From the IMG/VR virus record IMGVR_UViG_2531839665_000013: a DNA stretch of 32,154 bases, one strand, 5' to 3'. The translations under genes and the position numbers were made by a program. Within the stretch, counting starts at the first letter, position 1. Each line of letters starts with the position of its first letter. The notes under the pieces were generated by a model that searched no databases, was not told the DNA's origin, and worked only from the letters and a program-made list of their open reading frames with translations. Positions 11,056 through 17,185 of the stretch are shown in pieces. This DNA comes from a virus (lineage: Duplodnaviria; Heunggongvirae; Uroviricota; Caudoviricetes).

Positions 11056-12714
11056 TTACTGACTCAGACTGTTTATATTTTTCTGGAGTTGGTGCTTTGC
11101 CTGCATGATGCGCCAGGCCTCACTGCCTGCCGGTATCTCACGTCGTTCATCACGTTCCTGAGATAAATCAATCGTTGTTTGTGCGTTTTCAGTGACCTTC
11201 TGAACCCGCTGGTGGCCTTTGGCAAACCGGATCAGTTTGTGTCTGATGTAGTTATTTACCTCAGGGGTAATTTCCATCGGAAAGTTACTCAGTCCGTCAG
11301 GCCACTCGCCGAACTTTTCCCGGAAAGTGTGAGCACACCATCCGTCACTGACTGGACGCCCCAGCGAAGCACGCTGGCGCTGATAAAATTTGATCTGACT
11401 CCACCAGGACTGTTTCTCTGCCTTCGTCGACTGATGCTGATTTTTACCCAGCTTATTAAGTTTGCGGCTAGTGTCAGTATCAACGTCTTCACCTCGCAGC
11501 GGCTTGTGTCCACATTTCGGGCAAACATAGACGCCTGCTGGCTTCATGTAGTGGCATTGAGGGCATTCATGTGGCAGTTTTTCGGCCCGTTCCTCAACTG
11601 CCCGGCGCGCGCTTTCCTCCATGCCGTCAGACTTACCGGGAAGCTCGTCGTACTCGATTGAATCCGGATAACCCAAACGGTGCACGGTGCCGCTGTGATC
11701 GAAGATAAGGCAGGACTCTTTACCCGGTGCGGTGCGAAGCCCACGCCCGAGAGCCTGCAACCAGCGAATTTCGCTTTTTGTTGGCCTGGCGTAGATGATG
11801 CAACGAACGTCACTATCGAATCCGGCTACCAGAACGCCCACACTAACGATGATTTTCGTTGCACCAGTTTCAAAGCGGTGAATGATGGTCTGGCGCTCAT
11901 CTACCGGAGTGTCTGCGGTCATTACCTCAGCGTTAACACCTGCGAGGTTAAACTGGATTGTCAGGTAATTGGCGTGGGCTACGTTGACGCAGAAAGCGAT
12001 GGTAGGTAGATCCCGACCATTCTCCAGCCAGTTCTGTACAATGTCGCCCACCAGCGTAGAGCCGCACATGATTTCAGCCAGCTGTGTTTCGTTGTAATCG
12101 CGGCCGTACTCAAGCGAAGATGTGGTTTTAACACCTTTCAGATCCGGCTTAGTTGGCGCGTAAAATTCGTATTTACTCAGATCGCCACGCTGGATTAACT
12201 CGCCGATGGTGGTCGGTTTAATCAGTCGGTCATAGTATTTGCCCAGGAACGGGGAAAACGGAGTACCCGACAGGCCAATCACCTTTACGCCTTTGCCGCG
12301 CAGACGTTCGATATCCTTCAGGATGCGTTTTTTACGCAGGTGCGCTTCGTCGATAATCAGCAGATCGATATTTTCAGGAAAAACACGACGAATAAGCGTA
12401 TCAGCGCTGGCAATCTGAATTTTCCGGTCCGGATCGTAGTTCGGGTGATCCGCCCAGATATAACCGATTTCATCTCCAGGTAAACCATACTGCACGAACC
12501 GATTAGCCGTCTGACCAATCAGGATGGTGTACGGAACACAGAACAGAGCGCGCATACCACGGCTGACAAAACCAGCAACTATGAAGGCTGCCAGACCCGT
12601 TTTACCGCTACCTGTTGGCGAATACACCATGAAGGTGTCGTTTGCCTTCCAGTCACGGCGCAACATGTTTAGCGCTCGTTCCTGTGCAAAATTCGGCGTG
12701 ATCGTCAGCTCCAT
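11056..12714 (-). CDS. Superfamily-2 DEAH-type helicase with C-terminal zinc ribbon (replication helicase)
   Basis: Walker A SPTGSGKT, motif II IIDEAH, helicase C-terminal region, CPQCH...CPKCGH ribbon. Confidence 0.85.
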   Translation of the reverse strand: MELTITPNFAQERALNMLRRDWKANDTFMVYSPTGSGKTGLAAFIVAGFVSRGMRALFCVPYTILIGQTANRFVQYGLPGDEIGYIWADHPNYDPDRKIQIASADTLIRRVFPENIDLLIIDEAHLRKKRILKDIERLRGKGVKVIGLSGTPFSPFLGKYYDRLIKPTTIGELIQRGDLSKYEFYAPTKPDLKGVKTTSSLEYGRDYNETQLAEIMCGSTLVGDIVQNWLENGRDLPTIAFCVNVAHANYLTIQFNLAGVNAEVMTADTPVDERQTIIHRFETGATKIIVSVGVLVAGFDSDVRCIIYARPTKSEIRWLQALGRGLRTAPGKESCLIFDHSGTVHRLGYPDSIEYDELPGKSDGMEESARRAVEERAEKLPHECPQCHYMKPAGVYVCPKCGHKPLRGEDVDTDTSRKLNKLGKNQHQSTKAEKQSWWSQIKFYQRQRASLGRPVSDGWCAHTFREKFGEWPDGLSNFPMEITPEVNNYIRHKLIRFAKGHQRVQKVTENAQTTIDLSQERDERREIPAGSEAWRIMQAKHQLQKNINSLSQ

Positions 12715-12825
12715 TGTGCAGCTCCCGTGCTGATGAGATAATAATTTTGTGATGTGGTTTTCATGGATTCCCCCTCACATGGCTGGCGGCCTCCCCAAAG
12801 GCTGCCAGCCCCCTTCCGAATCAAC

Positions 12826-13194
12826 TCACTTAAATTTCGTCGCACGAATAACGTCAATTCCGTTCTCGCTATATCGAAGAGGGTGCTTACCGTCCCTGAG
12901 CAGGACAAAACCTGACATCCCCTCAGGTAGCTGAGCCAGCTTCATCAACGAACGGTTGCGGGGAGAATTCTTATCGACCTCAATGGCACACTGCTGGCCG
13001 TCTGATGATGTAACCAGGCAATCAATAAACCCTTTACGACCACCGCTAATGCTGATGCTGAAATTGCGTTGCAGGTGGTATCCCTGAGACTTGATTTTTT
13101 TCTGCATCACATAATCGAAAACGACTTTGTCATCGGAGCGGATGAATTGCTCTTCCAGGAGAGCGATTAAATTTTGCTTCAGGTCTTCACTCAT
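12826..13194 (-). CDS. Hypothetical protein (122 aa); possible PD-(D/E)xK-like motif
   Basis: ORF from track; GFIDCLV...CAIEVDK is reminiscent of a D...(D/E)xK nuclease core (weak). Confidence 0.5.
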   Translation of the reverse strand: MSEDLKQNLIALLEEQFIRSDDKVVFDYVMQKKIKSQGYHLQRNFSISISGGRKGFIDCLVTSSDGQQCAIEVDKNSPRNRSLMKLAQLPEGMSGFVLLRDGKHPLRYSENGIDVIRATKFK

Positions 13195-13442
13195 ACTTTT
13201 TATCCATCTTGTACTAGCTTTCTGGTACAGTCGTTTTTTCAGGGGTATCCCCCTTTAGATCGAGATCTACCTAACCTATGTACCCGTCTGTTGGAAAAGC
13301 CTGTTCCAGTGCTTCGCACTAACACACGGGCACTCCTCCCCCTCCCCTCCTCTCACTGAATTTTGCGTGTACTCCTTAGCTAGTACACAAATGCAATGAG
13401 ATTTGGGATTCAGCCACCGGACACCTTTAAGCCCGGTACCAA

Positions 13443-13736
13443 TCAGGAGCGCGATTGCGTTCCTGCCAGGGGCGGCTGAGTTGTATACCCCTGTAAAGCT
13501 CTGCCCTGATTTCTCACAAACAAGCGGAGCCTTGTGTTTGCTTCGTGCCTTGCTCTGTTCTCCTTGCGGAATGAAACAGGCTCAGCGTCAAAAGTGATTT
13601 CGTATACCTCCGCATATTTCAGGGCGACCTTCCGTCTCAGTGACGGAGGCAGCCCCTGTAACTGCTGCTGAATCCACTCTTCGTCTGCCTGGCAGTACCT
13701 AGATGGCATTTCAACCCTGACTAAATCCTGTTGCAT
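13443..13736 (-). CDS. Hypothetical protein (97 aa) in cII-equivalent position
   Basis: ORF from track downstream of cro-like gene. Confidence 0.45.
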   Translation of the reverse strand: MQQDLVRVEMPSRYCQADEEWIQQQLQGLPPSLRRKVALKYAEVYEITFDAEPVSFRKENRARHEANTRLRLFVRNQGRALQGYTTQPPLAGTQSRS

Positions 13737-13866
13737 GGCTTACTCTTCCCGCTTCGCTATGAGGTTATAAACCCCGCTGATCGGGTCATACCATATGCTG
13801 CGTGGCAGCAGCTTCTGGAAGTAGCGCGGATCTGGCATTACGGTTGACTGTTGTGACATGTCACAC

Positions 13867-14067
13867 CTAACTATTTGTTTTCCGTAATGGAGAAAAAATG
13901 AGGCTCTCTTTAGATAATTTGAGGGTTGGTGAAACTTTAGATACCGCTTCCTCAATTCTTTCAGCCATTGCAACTGAGGGGCGCCTAAAACCCAGAGCCA
14001 TCTGGTTCAGGTATGCAACGCTAGTCCCAGATAACTGTGCCAGCCGCCTCCATTCATCCGCGCTCAT
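13867..14067 (-). CDS. Cro-like HTH regulator (66 aa from internal Met)
   Basis: AGGAG RBS 2 nt before ATG at 14067; helix-turn-helix-like segment ...LAQLSGTSVAYLNQMALGFRRPS...; divergent from the cI-like gene. Confidence 0.55.
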   Translation of the reverse strand: MSADEWRRLAQLSGTSVAYLNQMALGFRRPSVAMAERIEEAVSKVSPTLKLSKESLIFSPLRKTNS

Positions 14068-14125
14068 GACTCCTCTGATTGAGAGCAATACACTGGACAT
14101 AAAAAACCCCATACTGTATTGGTTA

Positions 14126-14178
14126 TTAGCAACGTGCTAACATTAGCACATGAGATCACAATACAGCAATACGCTGTA
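14126..14178. promoter_or_regulatory. Candidate operators in the cro/cI intergenic region
   Basis: Palindromes TTAGCA-ACG-TGCTAA (14126-14140) and TACAGC-AATAC-GCTGTA (14162-14178), plus a TTAGCA half-site at 14143-14148. Confidence 0.5.
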
Positions 14179-14205
14179 AAGCATTTAGCTAACAATGAGA
14201 CAAGC

Positions 14206-14661
14206 ATGGAAATCAAAGATATTCGCTTAAAAAATCTACAGACGGTAATCCAACGCAGCGGCTTAACCCAGACAGATCTGGCGTTAAAATGTGAGATATC
14301 ACCCTCACTTATAAGCCAAATAATGACTAAGCGCAGGAATATGGGAACTGCTCTCGCTAGAAAACTCGAGGGGCGACTGAGCCTATCAGAAGGATGGTTT
14401 GACATCCCCCACTCATTGCTGGATTCCCCATGGCATCTAGCTAAAATGAGGGAAAAGACTGGTGAGACCACTATTGATGAACAGCAACTAACTAAAAGAG
14501 AGACTCGACTTATTGAGTTATTCAGACAAATGCCTGAAAGCGAAAAAGACAGGATAATCAGTGAGTTATCTGAAAAGAAACGTAATTTTGACAAACTACT
14601 TGATGAGCTAATGGCTGTTAAAGCATCAAGAATGCCGATCGACAAAGACGAAAATGAATAA
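14206..14661 (+). CDS. CI-like repressor candidate (HTH, XRE-type; no S24 peptidase domain)
   Basis: Internal start MEIKDIRLKNLQTVIQRSGLTQTDLALKCEISPSLISQIM...; divergent from cro-like gene; C-terminal part is charged and helical, not LexA-like. Confidence 0.55.
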   Translation: MEIKDIRLKNLQTVIQRSGLTQTDLALKCEISPSLISQIMTKRRNMGTALARKLEGRLSLSEGWFDIPHSLLDSPWHLAKMREKTGETTIDEQQLTKRETRLIELFRQMPESEKDRIISELSEKKRNFDKLLDELMAVKASRMPIDKDENE

Positions 14662-14735
14662 TAAATACAACGCACTATAAAAAAAACAGCAAATATTAGC
14701 ATTTTGCTATTGTCAAGAATAACGCATAGCGCTAC

Positions 14736-14771
14736 ATTCACCTCAGCAAGTAAAAACAAGTGAGGTGAATG
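14736..14771 (+). promoter_or_regulatory. 11-bp perfect inverted repeat (CATTCACCTCA ... TGAGGTGAATG) whose 3' arm contains the Shine-Dalgarno of the next gene
   Basis: Read directly; arms 14736-14746 and 14761-14771, 14-nt loop; the GAGG RBS for the ATG at 14774 lies inside the 3' arm. Confidence 0.5.
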
Positions 14772-14773
14772 TA

Positions 14774-15217
14774 ATGTTAAATGATAAACATGACTCTTAT
14801 TCCGTAAACTCTCTGTTGATTTGTGCTCAAGCGGCACTATTAGGCGGTACCGCTTCAAACCATGACGTCATCAACCTCTTAGATGTTGCACAAGACATCA
14901 TCTCTTCAACTATGAATTCCTTTACAGATAGTAGCGCTCCCGGCGCTAATGTTGATTTATTTACCAAAGAAGTTAGCGCTAGTAATTCCCCAGCATTATC
15001 TTTCGGTCAACGTATTCTCCAAGCGCGTAAATCAGCAAGTCTTCAACAACATCATATTGCCAGCGGTGCTGGAGTGACTGTTCAGGCTGTTTCGTTATGG
15101 GAAAATGACTCAGCAATTCCTACTTGCGACAAAATTATCCCATTGGCAAATATTCTTGGCTGCGATCCAATGTGGTTACTGACTGGTGCTTATAAACAAA
15201 ATCAGGAGGAAGCATAA
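14774..15217 (+). CDS. HTH (XRE-family) protein with C-terminal DNA-binding domain
   Basis: C-terminal ...LSFGQRILQARKSASLQQHHIASGAGVTVQAVSLWENDSAIPTCDKIIPLANILGCDPMWLL.. is a typical XRE HTH; the track starts at GTG 14765, the ATG at 14774 has the better RBS. Confidence 0.6.
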   Translation: MLNDKHDSYSVNSLLICAQAALLGGTASNHDVINLLDVAQDIISSTMNSFTDSSAPGANVDLFTKEVSASNSPALSFGQRILQARKSASLQQHHIASGAGVTVQAVSLWENDSAIPTCDKIIPLANILGCDPMWLLTGAYKQNQEEA

Positions 15218-15218
15218 G

Positions 15219-15410
15219 ATGAAAATGTTCAGAGGCCTTACCAACGAACCGGAGACAGTTTTTCATCACATTGCCGTACTGCTTGAAGCGGGGTTAATCA
15301 TTTCGGCTTGCGGTGATGAAGAATGTGATGAACTTTCGGATGATATCTTTTTACTGGCACAACAATACGCCAGAAGCGCATGCGATGCATTTAAGGAGCA
15401 AAGAACATGA
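15219..15410 (+). CDS. Hypothetical small acidic protein (63 aa)
   Basis: AGGAGG RBS 8 nt before ATG at 15219 (the track ORF starts further upstream). Confidence 0.5.
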   Translation: MKMFRGLTNEPETVFHHIAVLLEAGLIISACGDEECDELSDDIFLLAQQYARSACDAFKEQRT

Positions 15411-15598
15411 TAACTCCATTAAATATTCTTGAGGAAGTGGCAGCACAAATAAAAGAGAATACATCAACGCTTGAATTTATATTTAAGAATTCGCCTGATT
15501 CAGGAGAGACAGACGATTATTTATGTTGCCTCATTCGCTCCATGAATAAAACCTGTGAAATGGCTTACGAGTATATCGACACACTGCGCAACGAATAA
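15407..15598 (+). CDS. Hypothetical small protein (63 aa), coupled (ATGA overlap) to upstream ORF
   Basis: AAGGAG RBS; stop/start overlap at 15407-15410. Confidence 0.5.
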   Translation: MITPLNILEEVAAQIKENTSTLEFIFKNSPDSGETDDYLCCLIRSMNKTCEMAYEYIDTLRNE

Positions 15599-15680
15599 AG
15601 AAAACTCAATAAACAATCACACATAAAAACATAACGGCCTCTGGTCGGGAATTTCCACAACCTGAAAATGGTGGTGATGC

Positions 15681-15779
15681 ATGAAAAACAGAAGTGCTTA
15701 TAAAACCGCATTATTAATGGCTAATGCAGGATACTGGTCAGTTGCAATACTGTTTCTCAGGAAAGCATACGGGAAATAA
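15681..15779 (+). CDS. Possible 32-aa small hydrophobic protein (MKNRSAYKTALLMANAGYWSVAILFLRKAYGK)
   Basis: Hand-translated; GGTGGTGA upstream; stops 3 nt before the next gene. Confidence 0.3.
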   Translation: MKNRSAYKTALLMANAGYWSVAILFLRKAYGK

Positions 15780-15782
15780 CAA

Positions 15783-16142
15783 ATGACACATGAACCCATT
15801 AATACATATCGTCGCCGTATAGCTGTTGCGGCACTCCATCGAATAAAACGTAAAACAGGTGGTAATCTGCTTATTGTTGACCTTCCGGATGGGAACATTA
15901 CGACCATAGAAATAACTGAACAGTTTATAAACCAGTTGCTGTTACGCTTCGAAGGTATTACCCGTGGTGAATTGGGCCGGGTGGAGGGTGAAACCGAAAT
16001 CCACACTGCATACCAGAATGCTATCGGGATTAATCAACATACTGAATACCTGACTGAAACCGGAAAGTTAATTATAGACAACCTTTTTCAAGAGGTTATT
16101 GATTACGCGAAAGAAAAATATACCAGTGGAGGAATTAACTGA
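15783..16142 (+). CDS. Hypothetical protein (119 aa) with N-terminal arginine-rich motif; speculative N-like antiterminator
   Basis: N-terminal TYRRRIAVAALHRIKRK resembles arginine-rich RNA-binding motifs; position after the immunity region on the early-left transcript. Confidence 0.5.
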   Translation: MTHEPINTYRRRIAVAALHRIKRKTGGNLLIVDLPDGNITTIEITEQFINQLLLRFEGITRGELGRVEGETEIHTAYQNAIGINQHTEYLTETGKLIIDNLFQEVIDYAKEKYTSGGIN

Positions 16143-16357
16143 TGGCTAATTTATCCCCTGTATCTGTTGTGCGCGAAAAAGTGCAGATCGTTATGACAAT
16201 TGAAAATGGCCAAGTCACAGGTGTCTGCAAAGTCCGCGATGGCGAGCTGATTGCCAGCATGGATACATTCATACGGCTGGCAGAAAGAGCGGGGTATCAG
16301 ATAACAGCACCTGCTCAGGAGGAAACCGGTGGCATTAACAGCAACACGCATTCCTGA
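16142..16357 (+). CDS. Hypothetical protein (71 aa), coupled (TGATG overlap) to upstream gene
   Basis: ORF from track; start overlaps the upstream stop. Confidence 0.5.
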   Translation: MANLSPVSVVREKVQIVMTIENGQVTGVCKVRDGELIASMDTFIRLAERAGYQITAPAQEETGGINSNTHS

Positions 16358-16543
16358 GCGGATCCACCGGCAGGCATTGCAGGTCCTGTTGTTGTACCGA
16401 TGCCGACGGATATTTCCGCATCGGATACAGCGCACCGGATATCTCAGTCTGAAGGTTAACCGTCGCTGGCGGCTGTTATCGAAAGGCGACGGCCGGAACT
16501 GGGAAGTAATGAGTCATGAACGTTATTCGGGAGAAATAAAGAA

Positions 16544-16936
16544 ATGATCGACAACCGCACCGCCAGCGCCATTGACCAGGCATTACAGAAACATGATACA
16601 CCCGTCGGCCCGTTATTTTTTGTAACACGCCACGGAAGAACAAAAAAATGCCTCACCCGAAAAACGGCAATTCGTTACCTGGCATTCTTTATGACCACCC
16701 GCGCTTTTGAACGTTCAGGATTCCGACAACGCTATCCTGACAAGCGTTTTATCTTCAACGGGAATGAGATATGGAAACGTGGAGAATCAACCACAGAGTA
16801 TACCCGCGCACACCAGCGAACAATCAGACGACTGCGCAGACTCATCGCCAGGAAACAGTATACAGAAAAATGGTTCAGAAAATATGACACATGGAGCGCC
16901 GGATATTACGAACTGATGGCAACAAAACCATTCTGA
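16544..16936 (+). CDS. Hypothetical basic protein (130 aa)
   Basis: ORF from track with GGAGA RBS; Arg/Lys-rich. Confidence 0.55.
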   Translation: MIDNRTASAIDQALQKHDTPVGPLFFVTRHGRTKKCLTRKTAIRYLAFFMTTRAFERSGFRQRYPDKRFIFNGNEIWKRGESTTEYTRAHQRTIRRLRRLIARKQYTEKWFRKYDTWSAGYYELMATKPF

Positions 16937-16996
16937 CGTAAACGAAATTAACCATGACGCAATTAAATAAGGCAAGCCGAATACATCAGGAGGACC

Positions 16997-17185
16997 ATGA
17001 ACATTTATTTCAGAATAGTTATATCACTGGCAATTATCACATGTATTTACGGATTAATCGTTCCGGCCCTCATATCAATGAAGGATACGGTAGCAGTGAT
17101 TTCTGGCTTTGCTCTGGCGTGTCTGACCCCGCCCTGCATTTATGCCATTTATAAGGGTCTTTCTTTTTCTAAGGATAAAAGATGA
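16997..17185 (+). CDS. Small membrane protein (62 aa, two predicted TM helices)
   Basis: AGGAGG RBS; sequence is almost entirely hydrophobic; overlaps the next gene by 4 nt. Confidence 0.55.
   Translation: MNIYFRIVISLAIITCIYGLIVPALISMKDTVAVISGFALACLTPPCIYAIYKGLSFSKDKR

Follow-up and report, generated by a model that had tools for sequence, protein, structure and literature searches.

A hairpin spanning a predicted early-left promoter and the ribosome-binding site of its first gene in a lambdoid prophage immunity region: a candidate filter of repressor-gene read-through

Why should a temperate phage bury the ribosome-binding site of a gene in a highly stable hairpin, and place that hairpin shortly behind its own repressor gene? 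The question is raised by a 32,154-nucleotide (nt) stretch of viral DNA, IMG/VR record IMGVR_UViG_2531839665_000013 (the window, by which we mean the whole of this stretch), in which a perfect inverted repeat occupies the gap between two helix-turn-helix (HTH) genes. The window carries a lambdoid prophage, as its gene order makes clear (portal ... Q ... cro-like / cI-like / HTH2 ... xis-int), and the hairpin lies in the immunity region between the gene for a CI-like repressor, here called cI, and the second HTH gene, here called HTH2. The answer that we favour, and consider probable though well short of settled, is that the hairpin serves as a promoter-specific translation filter which insulates the early-left operon from transcription that reads through from the repressor gene.

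Structure and conservation of the hairpin

The repeat consists of TACATTCACCTCA (14733-14745) and TGAGGTGAATGTA (14761-14773), which are perfectly complementary over 13 base pairs (bp) and enclose a loop of 15 nt (14746-14760). A preliminary description of this DNA had reported 11 bp of exact complementarity between CATTCACCTCA, placed at 14736-14746, and TGAGGTGAATG at 14761-14771. The repeat exists and the 3' arm had been located correctly, but the 5' arm of that version actually lies at 14735-14745 and the stem extends two pairs further outward. On its own the 11-bp version would be unremarkable. When dinucleotide-preserving shuffles of the window were searched for perfect inverted repeats whose loop did not exceed 25 nt, 31 of 200 contained one of 11 bp or more, and only one of the 200 contained one of 13 bp or more. 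The 41-nt hairpin alone is predicted to fold at -18.4 kcal/mol without internal mismatches. Folding of the RNA from 14725 to 14790, which the preliminary description had proposed as a check, gave -23.1 kcal/mol, compared with -8.1 +/- 2.1 kcal/mol in shuffles (z = -7.2, with 0 of 200 as good), and the Shine-Dalgarno sequence (SD) was buried in the stem. The elements that had been noted at the 3' arm are all correct, namely a GAGG (14763-14766), an ATG (14774) and, within the arm itself, a GTG (14765) in frame with that ATG. The SD GAGG is contained in the stem, which reaches 14773 and adjoins the ATG; this ATG is the start of HTH2 annotated by RefSeq, and all homologues begin with ML or MF at the same position.

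The comparison on which we base our reading of this element covers 15 distinct versions of the segment from the end of cI to the start of HTH2, aligned with one another. They were drawn from viral contigs, from one metagenome scan anchored on the operator (not on the hairpin) and from look-ups of HTH2 homologues, and they represent Escherichia, Shigella, Klebsiella, Raoultella and Salmonella records together with metagenomes. Identity ranges from 82 to 100% for the CI proteins and from 40 to 100% for the HTH2 proteins. The intergenic region is also carried by 20 complete genomes of E. coli, but these give no comparative information because all 20 copies are 100% identical. The immunity module was not found in GenBank phage records, either by DNA or at more than 60% protein identity, and a scan of GTDB genomes with HTH2 returned one match only, which was unrelated.

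Across the 15 versions, 3 of the 26 columns in the arms are variable, against 12 of 15 in the loop (Fisher p = 2e-5) and 25 of 51 in the other non-operator parts of the intergenic region (Fisher p = 0.001); immediately downstream, 13 of 15 third codon positions vary. The part of the 3' arm that forms the SD-ATG spacer, AATGTA, pairs with the predicted -10 hexamer considered below, and here 0 of 7 columns vary, with no obvious constraint on the spacer itself beyond this pairing. The other segment without a promoter or SD function, CACCTCA in the 5' arm, which pairs with the SD, is likewise conserved, with 2 of 7 columns variable. Both changes are from C to T, at one position in L086 and L166 and at the other in L167 and L168, and each leads to a G.U pair in the + strand RNA. 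Within the 3' arm only one of the 13 columns is variable, that of the closing pair (T14761 to C in L154 and L155). The 13-bp arms stand 13 or 15 nt apart, with an effective loop of 9-17 nt, and no variant has a predicted hairpin stability outside the range of -16.1 to -20.4 kcal/mol. L086, besides its G.U change, has a loop that is shorter and a stem that extends 2 bp further inward. The hairpin is real, non-random and conserved.

The predicted embedded promoter and two kinds of transcript

The position of the hairpin relative to transcription is set by the operators and by the layout of the genes. The motif TTAGCA-N3-TGCTAA, at 0-1 mismatch, occurs in the whole 32-kb window only at 14126-14140 and 14696-14710 (Table 1), and its presence at both the right (OR) and left (OL) operator positions identifies the first HTH gene as that of a CI-like repressor and the gap between cI and HTH2 as the OL/PL region, PL being the early-left promoter. 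All genes from HTH2 through int are on the + strand without another sizeable gap, so the early-left promoter must lie within 14662-14773. A consensus scan of this gap found a sole + strand promoter-like site, TTGTCA-17-TACATT, and its predicted -10 hexamer, TACATT, coincides with the first six bases of the 5' arm, on the outer side of the stem. Counting the usual 7 nt on from the end of that hexamer would place the transcription start (+1) at about A14745, with which the 5' arm ends. This base is the same in all variants, and the -10 hexamer and the promoter spacing are invariant in all 15. Transcripts from the predicted promoter could not form the hairpin, because their predicted start coincides with the end of the 5' arm. 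The repressor gene is co-directional with HTH2, its end lies 72 nt upstream of the 5' arm, and a terminator scan found no terminator-like site between the cI stop codon and HTH2.

Folding predictions differ sharply between the two types of RNA that this arrangement would allow. In read-through RNA, begun at positions 14560-14662, the stem was always formed and the probability that the SD is unpaired was 0.001; opening the SD was calculated to cost 17-19 kcal/mol, and opening the 30-nt ribosome footprint 21-23 kcal/mol. In RNA begun at the promoter (14743-14746) the probability that the SD is unpaired was about 0.23, and the corresponding costs were 4-6 and 8-11 kcal/mol. The computed extra opening cost in read-through as opposed to promoter RNA is about 12-14 kcal/mol, and for SD-masking hairpins of the kind studied by de Smit and van Duin such an energy gap reportedly amounts to several orders of magnitude in translation. 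The preliminary description had suggested a translational control structure, and this idea is right in kind, in so far as an RNA with both arms almost never has an unpaired SD in the predicted folds, but the predicted embedded promoter, which alters the logic, had been missed. With the predicted -10 hexamer inside the 5' arm, the hairpin is more probably a filter of read-through than a regulator of the mRNA that HTH2 itself produces.

How such a filter might operate can be set out as follows. In a lysogen, RNA polymerase that has passed cI would run on through the gap, and the resulting RNA would carry both arms. This RNA would fold (at about -18 kcal/mol) and bury the SD up to the base before the AUG, leaving HTH2 untranslated, and in this state it would probably be open, by polarity, to Rho termination and to decay. 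Once CI leaves the operators the early-left promoter would fire, giving an RNA that begins with the loop and does not include the 5' arm, and in which the SD would be as accessible as in an ordinary mRNA. We infer the read-through from cI, the size of the translational block and the involvement of Rho as parts of this proposal. A stronger claim, which we put forward as a possibility but think somewhat doubtful, is that this family of enterobacterial lambdoid prophages dispensed with a terminator behind its repressor gene, and that a hairpin spanning the early-left promoter instead makes the lysogenic read-through RNA untranslatable, and thereby liable to Rho termination and decay, without affecting the RNA that the derepressed promoter produces.

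The inheritance of HTH2 allows a more adventurous version of the same idea. At least three unrelated versions of its HTH region (..GVTVQAVSLWEND.., ..NTYSDHISDWECG.. and ..DLNEEIIIQWESG.. in the alignment) are found among loci with identical arms, and the N-terminal ~75 residues (..SVNSLLICAQAALL..DVINLLDVAQD..) are co-inherited with the CI/operator module (loci L154-L168). The HTH version of the window also occurs behind other N-terminal domains and with other repressors; in L164 and L165 an HTH2 with the window's HTH type is accompanied by a different repressor and no repeat. Since the HTH has been swapped while the arms remained identical, the repeat is inherited along with the CI module and the N-terminal part of HTH2 and does not follow the DNA-binding domain. 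The co-inheritance of the N-terminal residues with the CI/operator module suggests that the N-terminal domain, modelled by AlphaFold with low confidence (pLDDT 35-65), has an immunity-specific partner. From the contrast between this domain, which stays with the CI module, and a DNA-binding domain that is freely exchanged, one might go further and suppose that HTH2 is a lytic or anti-immunity regulator specific to its immunity type, and that lysogeny would become unstable if the protein were made by leakage. If HTH2 is such a regulator, the hairpin would be a required part of the genetic switch.

Several considerations weigh against the filter and need to be taken together. The +1 was placed by a standard distance, the promoter matches the consensus at 9 of 12 positions, its -35 hexamer differs in 3 of the 15 variants, and promoter-like matches are not enriched here (3 found, 3.2 expected in shuffles). 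The promoter transcript too has some predicted pairing of the SD, albeit weak and in alternative structures. Read-through from cI is assumed, and a Rho-dependent stop or a roadblock of bound CI could block it. As for the comparative evidence, the counts of variable columns come from phylogenetically non-independent sequences, and part of the conservation of the arms is due to the -10 hexamer and the SD themselves. No double (compensatory) change was found among the variants, and covariation proper is nil because 10 of the 13 pairs never vary; the shuffle control for covariation was uninformative, the observed value being reached in 500 of 500 shuffles. The change of T14761 to C produces an A.C mismatch on the + strand and a G.U pair on the - strand, which leaves the strand evidence at 2 to 1.

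Finally, three modules with HTH2 homologues (L164, L165 and L012) do not have this hairpin. Two of these, L165 and L012, lack a masking stem, and their upstream gene is followed by a conventional stem plus T-run terminator. The third, L164, has no terminator and shows a 6-bp UUCUUC/GAAGAA pairing between its -10/+1 region and the SD. This pairing may be a weak echo of the same architecture or a product of chance, and we regard it as suggestive but weak. The L164 locus (about 1385-1500) joins its HTH2 homologue to a different immunity module, with an S24-peptidase CI and a P22_Cro protein, and its predicted -10 hexamer is TATTAT, with the UUCUUC placed between this hexamer and the +1. The pattern of terminator or stem across the three fits the filter idea, although the sample is far too small to count.

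Alternative explanations of the repeat

The alternative that survives best, though we judge it unlikely, is that the hairpin forms the 3' end structure of the cI mRNA, either as a weak, non-canonical terminator or pause site or as a barrier to 3'-5' exonucleases, and that occlusion of the SD is a by-product. Transcripts of the early-left promoter would still escape, since they start inside the hairpin. Such a role would suit the position of the hairpin as the first stable structure past the cI stop codon, with no canonical terminator between, as well as a stability that is kept at -16 to -20 kcal/mol among the variants and the occurrence, in L165 and L012, of an ordinary stem and T-run terminator at the equivalent place where no such hairpin exists. 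However, in none of the variants is the stem followed by a U-run, the next bases being AUGUUAAAU, AUGUUCAGU or AUGCUCCGU, and a loop of 9-17 nt is atypical of intrinsic terminators, for which the scan is empty here. Nor would a 3' end role explain the exact register in which the 3' arm matches the interval from SD to AUG and the 5' arm that from the -10 hexamer to the +1. The two roles are compatible, and the same RNA may have a 3' end function in addition to that of a filter. An intrinsic terminator in the strict sense was rejected in view of the 15-nt loop, the lack of a U-run in any variant and the negative scan. The dismissal of a terminator in the preliminary description holds, as the scan is empty at 14733-14790 and the stem is followed by ATGTTAAATGA, with no T-run in any variant.

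A second possibility, to which we give little credence, is that the inverted repeat acts as double-stranded DNA, as an operator that spans -12 to +29 of the early-left promoter, for a dimeric or tetrameric regulator such as HTH2, the Cro-like protein, CI or a host factor. The repeat overlaps the predicted -10 hexamer and start, three HTH proteins are encoded within 1 kb, and the arms are strongly conserved without compensatory change, as a protein contact surface would be; perfect symmetry alone cannot tell a role in RNA from one in DNA. What speaks against an operator is the way in which the repeat varies. The arms of close relatives are separated by 13 nt in some and by 15 nt in others, a difference of 2 bp that would rotate the half-sites by about 70 degrees, and no stretch of the gap varies more than the loop. 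Two internal changes in the arms break the symmetry of the DNA and yet keep the pairing of the RNA. The recognition helix of HTH2 is of at least three unrelated types in loci with identical arms, and L164 and L165 share the HTH and have no repeat. A search of the regulatory regions of the window for other copies of the half-site with up to 2 mismatches found none, and the 12 matches (9.7 expected) give no second copy beyond chance in the window. The CI operators at OR and OL have a different motif, and nothing points to binding by CI or Cro. The protein-binding palindrome that the preliminary description had offered as an option is thus disfavoured by the changes in arm distance, the lack of other half-site copies, the swapped HTH and the different motif of CI.

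About as improbable, in our estimation, is regulation of HTH2 through its own mRNA, which is essentially the translational control envisaged in the preliminary description. Transcription would begin upstream of 14733, all HTH2 transcripts would carry the stem, and something would open it, be it temperature, a trans-acting RNA or protein, cleavage by an RNase or ribosomes moving along an upstream reading frame. The +1 is placed by inference only, the SD is fully paired in any RNA with both arms, and a frame of 19 codons runs from TTG at 14704 to a TGA (14761-14763) at the start of the 3' arm. Against this, the gap contains no alternative promoter match upstream. A stem of 13-15 bp would make a short RNase III site, the 19-codon frame has neither an SD nor an ATG and its register shifts in the variants whose loop is 2 nt shorter, and no Rfam match was obtained in the region even at E <= 10. 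Known RNA thermometers are far less stable than a perfect 13-bp stem of -18 kcal/mol. The 19-codon frame (14704-14763) begins inside the OL operator and crosses the promoter and the 5' arm, and it is probably meaningless.

Some more specific RNA elements were considered and rejected. An RNA thermometer or riboswitch would not be expected to have so stable and perfect a stem, belongs to no Rfam family here and would be absent from the predicted transcript of the operon itself; the Rfam search covered 12500-17000 at E <= 10 and returned three chance-level matches and nothing for the hairpin. A nut site with boxA and boxB, or a put site like that of HK022, was set aside as the 5' arm lies upstream of the predicted +1 and forms one side of a single long stem, as Rfam gave no match at E <= 10, and as there is no N-like gene, the first gene encoding an HTH protein. 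Structure in an RNA of the - strand was also discarded. The only promoter-like site on that strand, TTTACG-16-TATCAT (14808 to 14781), is not conserved in the diverged variants, and two of the three one-sided changes in the arms would give A.C on the - strand, with one favouring it.

That the palindrome has no function and arose by chance is very improbable, for although the 32-kb window contains two perfect 13-bp inverted repeats and the site is therefore not unique, just one shuffle in 200 produced such a repeat, different genera share the arms even though the loop and neighbouring sites have diverged, and in L086 an extension of the stem makes up for lost stability.

Known designs and the surrounding immunity region

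The principle that we propose has precedents. In phage T4 an inhibitory helix overlies the translation initiation region of the genes e, soc, 49 and I-TevI, and the DNA of its 5' strand contains a late promoter, whose RNA does not include the 5' strand and is translated (McPheeters et al. 1986; PMC3014915). Early and middle transcripts that read through fold so as to bury the SD, the AUG or both, and for gene e the synthesis of lysozyme from the long transcripts is cut about 100-fold (PMC3014915). The likeness to the present hairpin would extend to the burial of the SD, the AUG or both by a stem on long transcripts, to a promoter, here predicted, in the DNA of the 5' strand and to the purpose of keeping a gene silent while it is transcribed through. 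The T4 switch is temporal, however, belonging to the lytic cycle and depending on the late sigma factor gp55 and a promoter of the type TATAAATA, whereas here lysogenic read-through of a repressor gene would be distinguished from a CI-repressed, sigma-70 early promoter. The T4 helices show no sequence similarity to the hairpin of the window.

For the insertion sequence IS10, Davis, Simons and Kleckner are said to have described transcripts from outside in which RNA from ahead of the IS10 start site pairs with the ribosome-binding site; RNA begun at that start site is translatable. A passage in PMC13181058 credits fold-back inhibition in IS10/Tn10, as protection against external promoters, to Davis, Simons & Kleckner 1985, Cell 43:379. 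As is proposed for the present case, the read-through RNA masks the ribosome-binding site by means of a segment that the own transcript does not contain. The settings differ in that IS10 concerns a transposon end and has an antisense RNA, RNA-OUT, whereas the hairpin described here lies in a phage immunity region, where the 'outside' transcription would be that of the phage's own repressor gene.

The third comparison is with lambda, in which cI-rexA-rexB are followed by the terminator tIMM and then by OL/PL and N with nutL. The window resembles lambda in having the repressor gene and the early-left operon in the same direction, with promoter and operators just downstream of the repressor gene and the same motif at OR and OL. 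It differs in that lambda has a repressor terminator and an N/nut leader; here there is no terminator-like site, no N-like gene and no boxA or boxB, and the first early-left gene encodes an HTH protein.

The hairpin design is already known from T4 e/soc/49/I-TevI and from IS10, and what appears to be new is its setting in a lysogeny switch. Full-text literature searches turned up no description of this design at a lambdoid or prophage early promoter, which is weak evidence of absence. Since the principle is established, no new field is opened, and the finding will hardly surprise a phage specialist; it is nonetheless a neat and testable element. If our reading is correct, a temperate phage has here a simple means of shielding the early-left operon from repressor-gene transcription, for which no terminator is needed, and a single 41-nt element combines the -10 hexamer, the start site and the ribosome-binding site with their mutual masking. 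The design of the T4 late genes and IS10 would then extend to the lambdoid lysogeny switch in pathogenic E. coli, Shigella, Klebsiella and Salmonella. Annotators would have a reason to choose the ATG at 14774 as the start codon in preference to the GTG at 14765, and synthetic biology would gain a natural and compact instance of a translation filter that is specific to one promoter.

Table 1. Coordinates of the hairpin, the predicted promoter, the operators and the neighbouring genes in the window
Feature	Position	Strand	Details
5' arm TACATTCACCTCA	14733..14745	+	Begins with the 6 bases of the predicted -10 hexamer and ends with the predicted +1
Loop GCAAGTAAAAACAAG	14746..14760	+	Would open the predicted early-left transcript
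3' arm TGAGGTGAATGTA	14761..14773	+	Holds the SD GAGG (14763-14766) and the entire SD-to-ATG spacer
Predicted sigma-70 early-left promoter (PL-like)	14710..14738	+	TTGTCA 14710-14715, 17-nt spacer, TACATT 14733-14738
OL operator, CI-type, TTAGCATTTTGCTAT	14696..14710		Abuts the -35 hexamer; same in all variants
Weaker operator-like dyad ACGCATAGCGCTA	14722..14734		In the promoter spacer, overlapping the start of the -10 hexamer; putative, from sequence
OR operator TTAGCAACGTGCTAA	14126..14140		Perfect dyad between the divergent cro-like and cI-like genes
CI-like repressor gene	14206..14661	+	151 amino acids (aa); HTH_3; PHROG 5736; no peptidase domain; Pfam, PHROG, RefSeq
HTH2, first early-left gene	14774..15217	+	147 aa; HTH_3/HTH_19 in C-terminal part; N-terminal domain of unknown function
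Cro-like HTH open reading frame (ORF), divergent from cI	13867..14112	-	True start probably an internal ATG

Chromosomal prophages of E. coli match the 1.3 kb around the hairpin with 100% identity. In AUSMDU00002545, portal, terminase and lysis genes, two tRNA-Arg genes, a Q-type antiterminator, a toprim protein and a helicase lie on one strand, and the two HTH genes, small ORFs, the excisionase and the integrase lie on the opposite one. The first HTH gene (14206-14661) stands back to back with the small HTH ORF of the opposite strand. RefSeq does not annotate this Cro-like ORF, leaving a gap between the features at 13443-13736 and 14206-14661 of the window, and in related loci a gene of 68 aa is called at its position. 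HTH2 matches PHROG 4836, 'CII-like regulator', and another product of the early-left operon, of 72 aa (16329-16547 in the window), bears the RefSeq label 'ParE family toxin-like protein'.

With regard to the operators, the weaker dyad reads AAGCACAGAGCTA in L160, which is nearer to the operator consensus. The operator word ATTAGCATTTTGCTATTGAC is found fused to a -35 hexamer in unrelated viral and metagenomic contigs (L095, L104, L106 and L127, and also L111, L151 and L103). Further TTAGCA..GCTAA dyads follow in these contigs, none of which carries the hairpin, and in L095, L104, L106 and L127 the ATTAGCATTTTGCTATTGAC operator sits behind a clear stem and T-run terminator. This operator specificity seems to be common to otherwise different phages.

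The second perfect 13-bp inverted repeat of the window, TGGGCTGTAGTCC / GGACTACAGCCCA, spans 6527-6573 with a loop of 21 nt. It lies in the leader just upstream of a late-region gene of 616 aa (4635-6485, - strand, DUF6645) and downstream of two tRNA-Arg genes, and it is not followed by a T-run on either strand.

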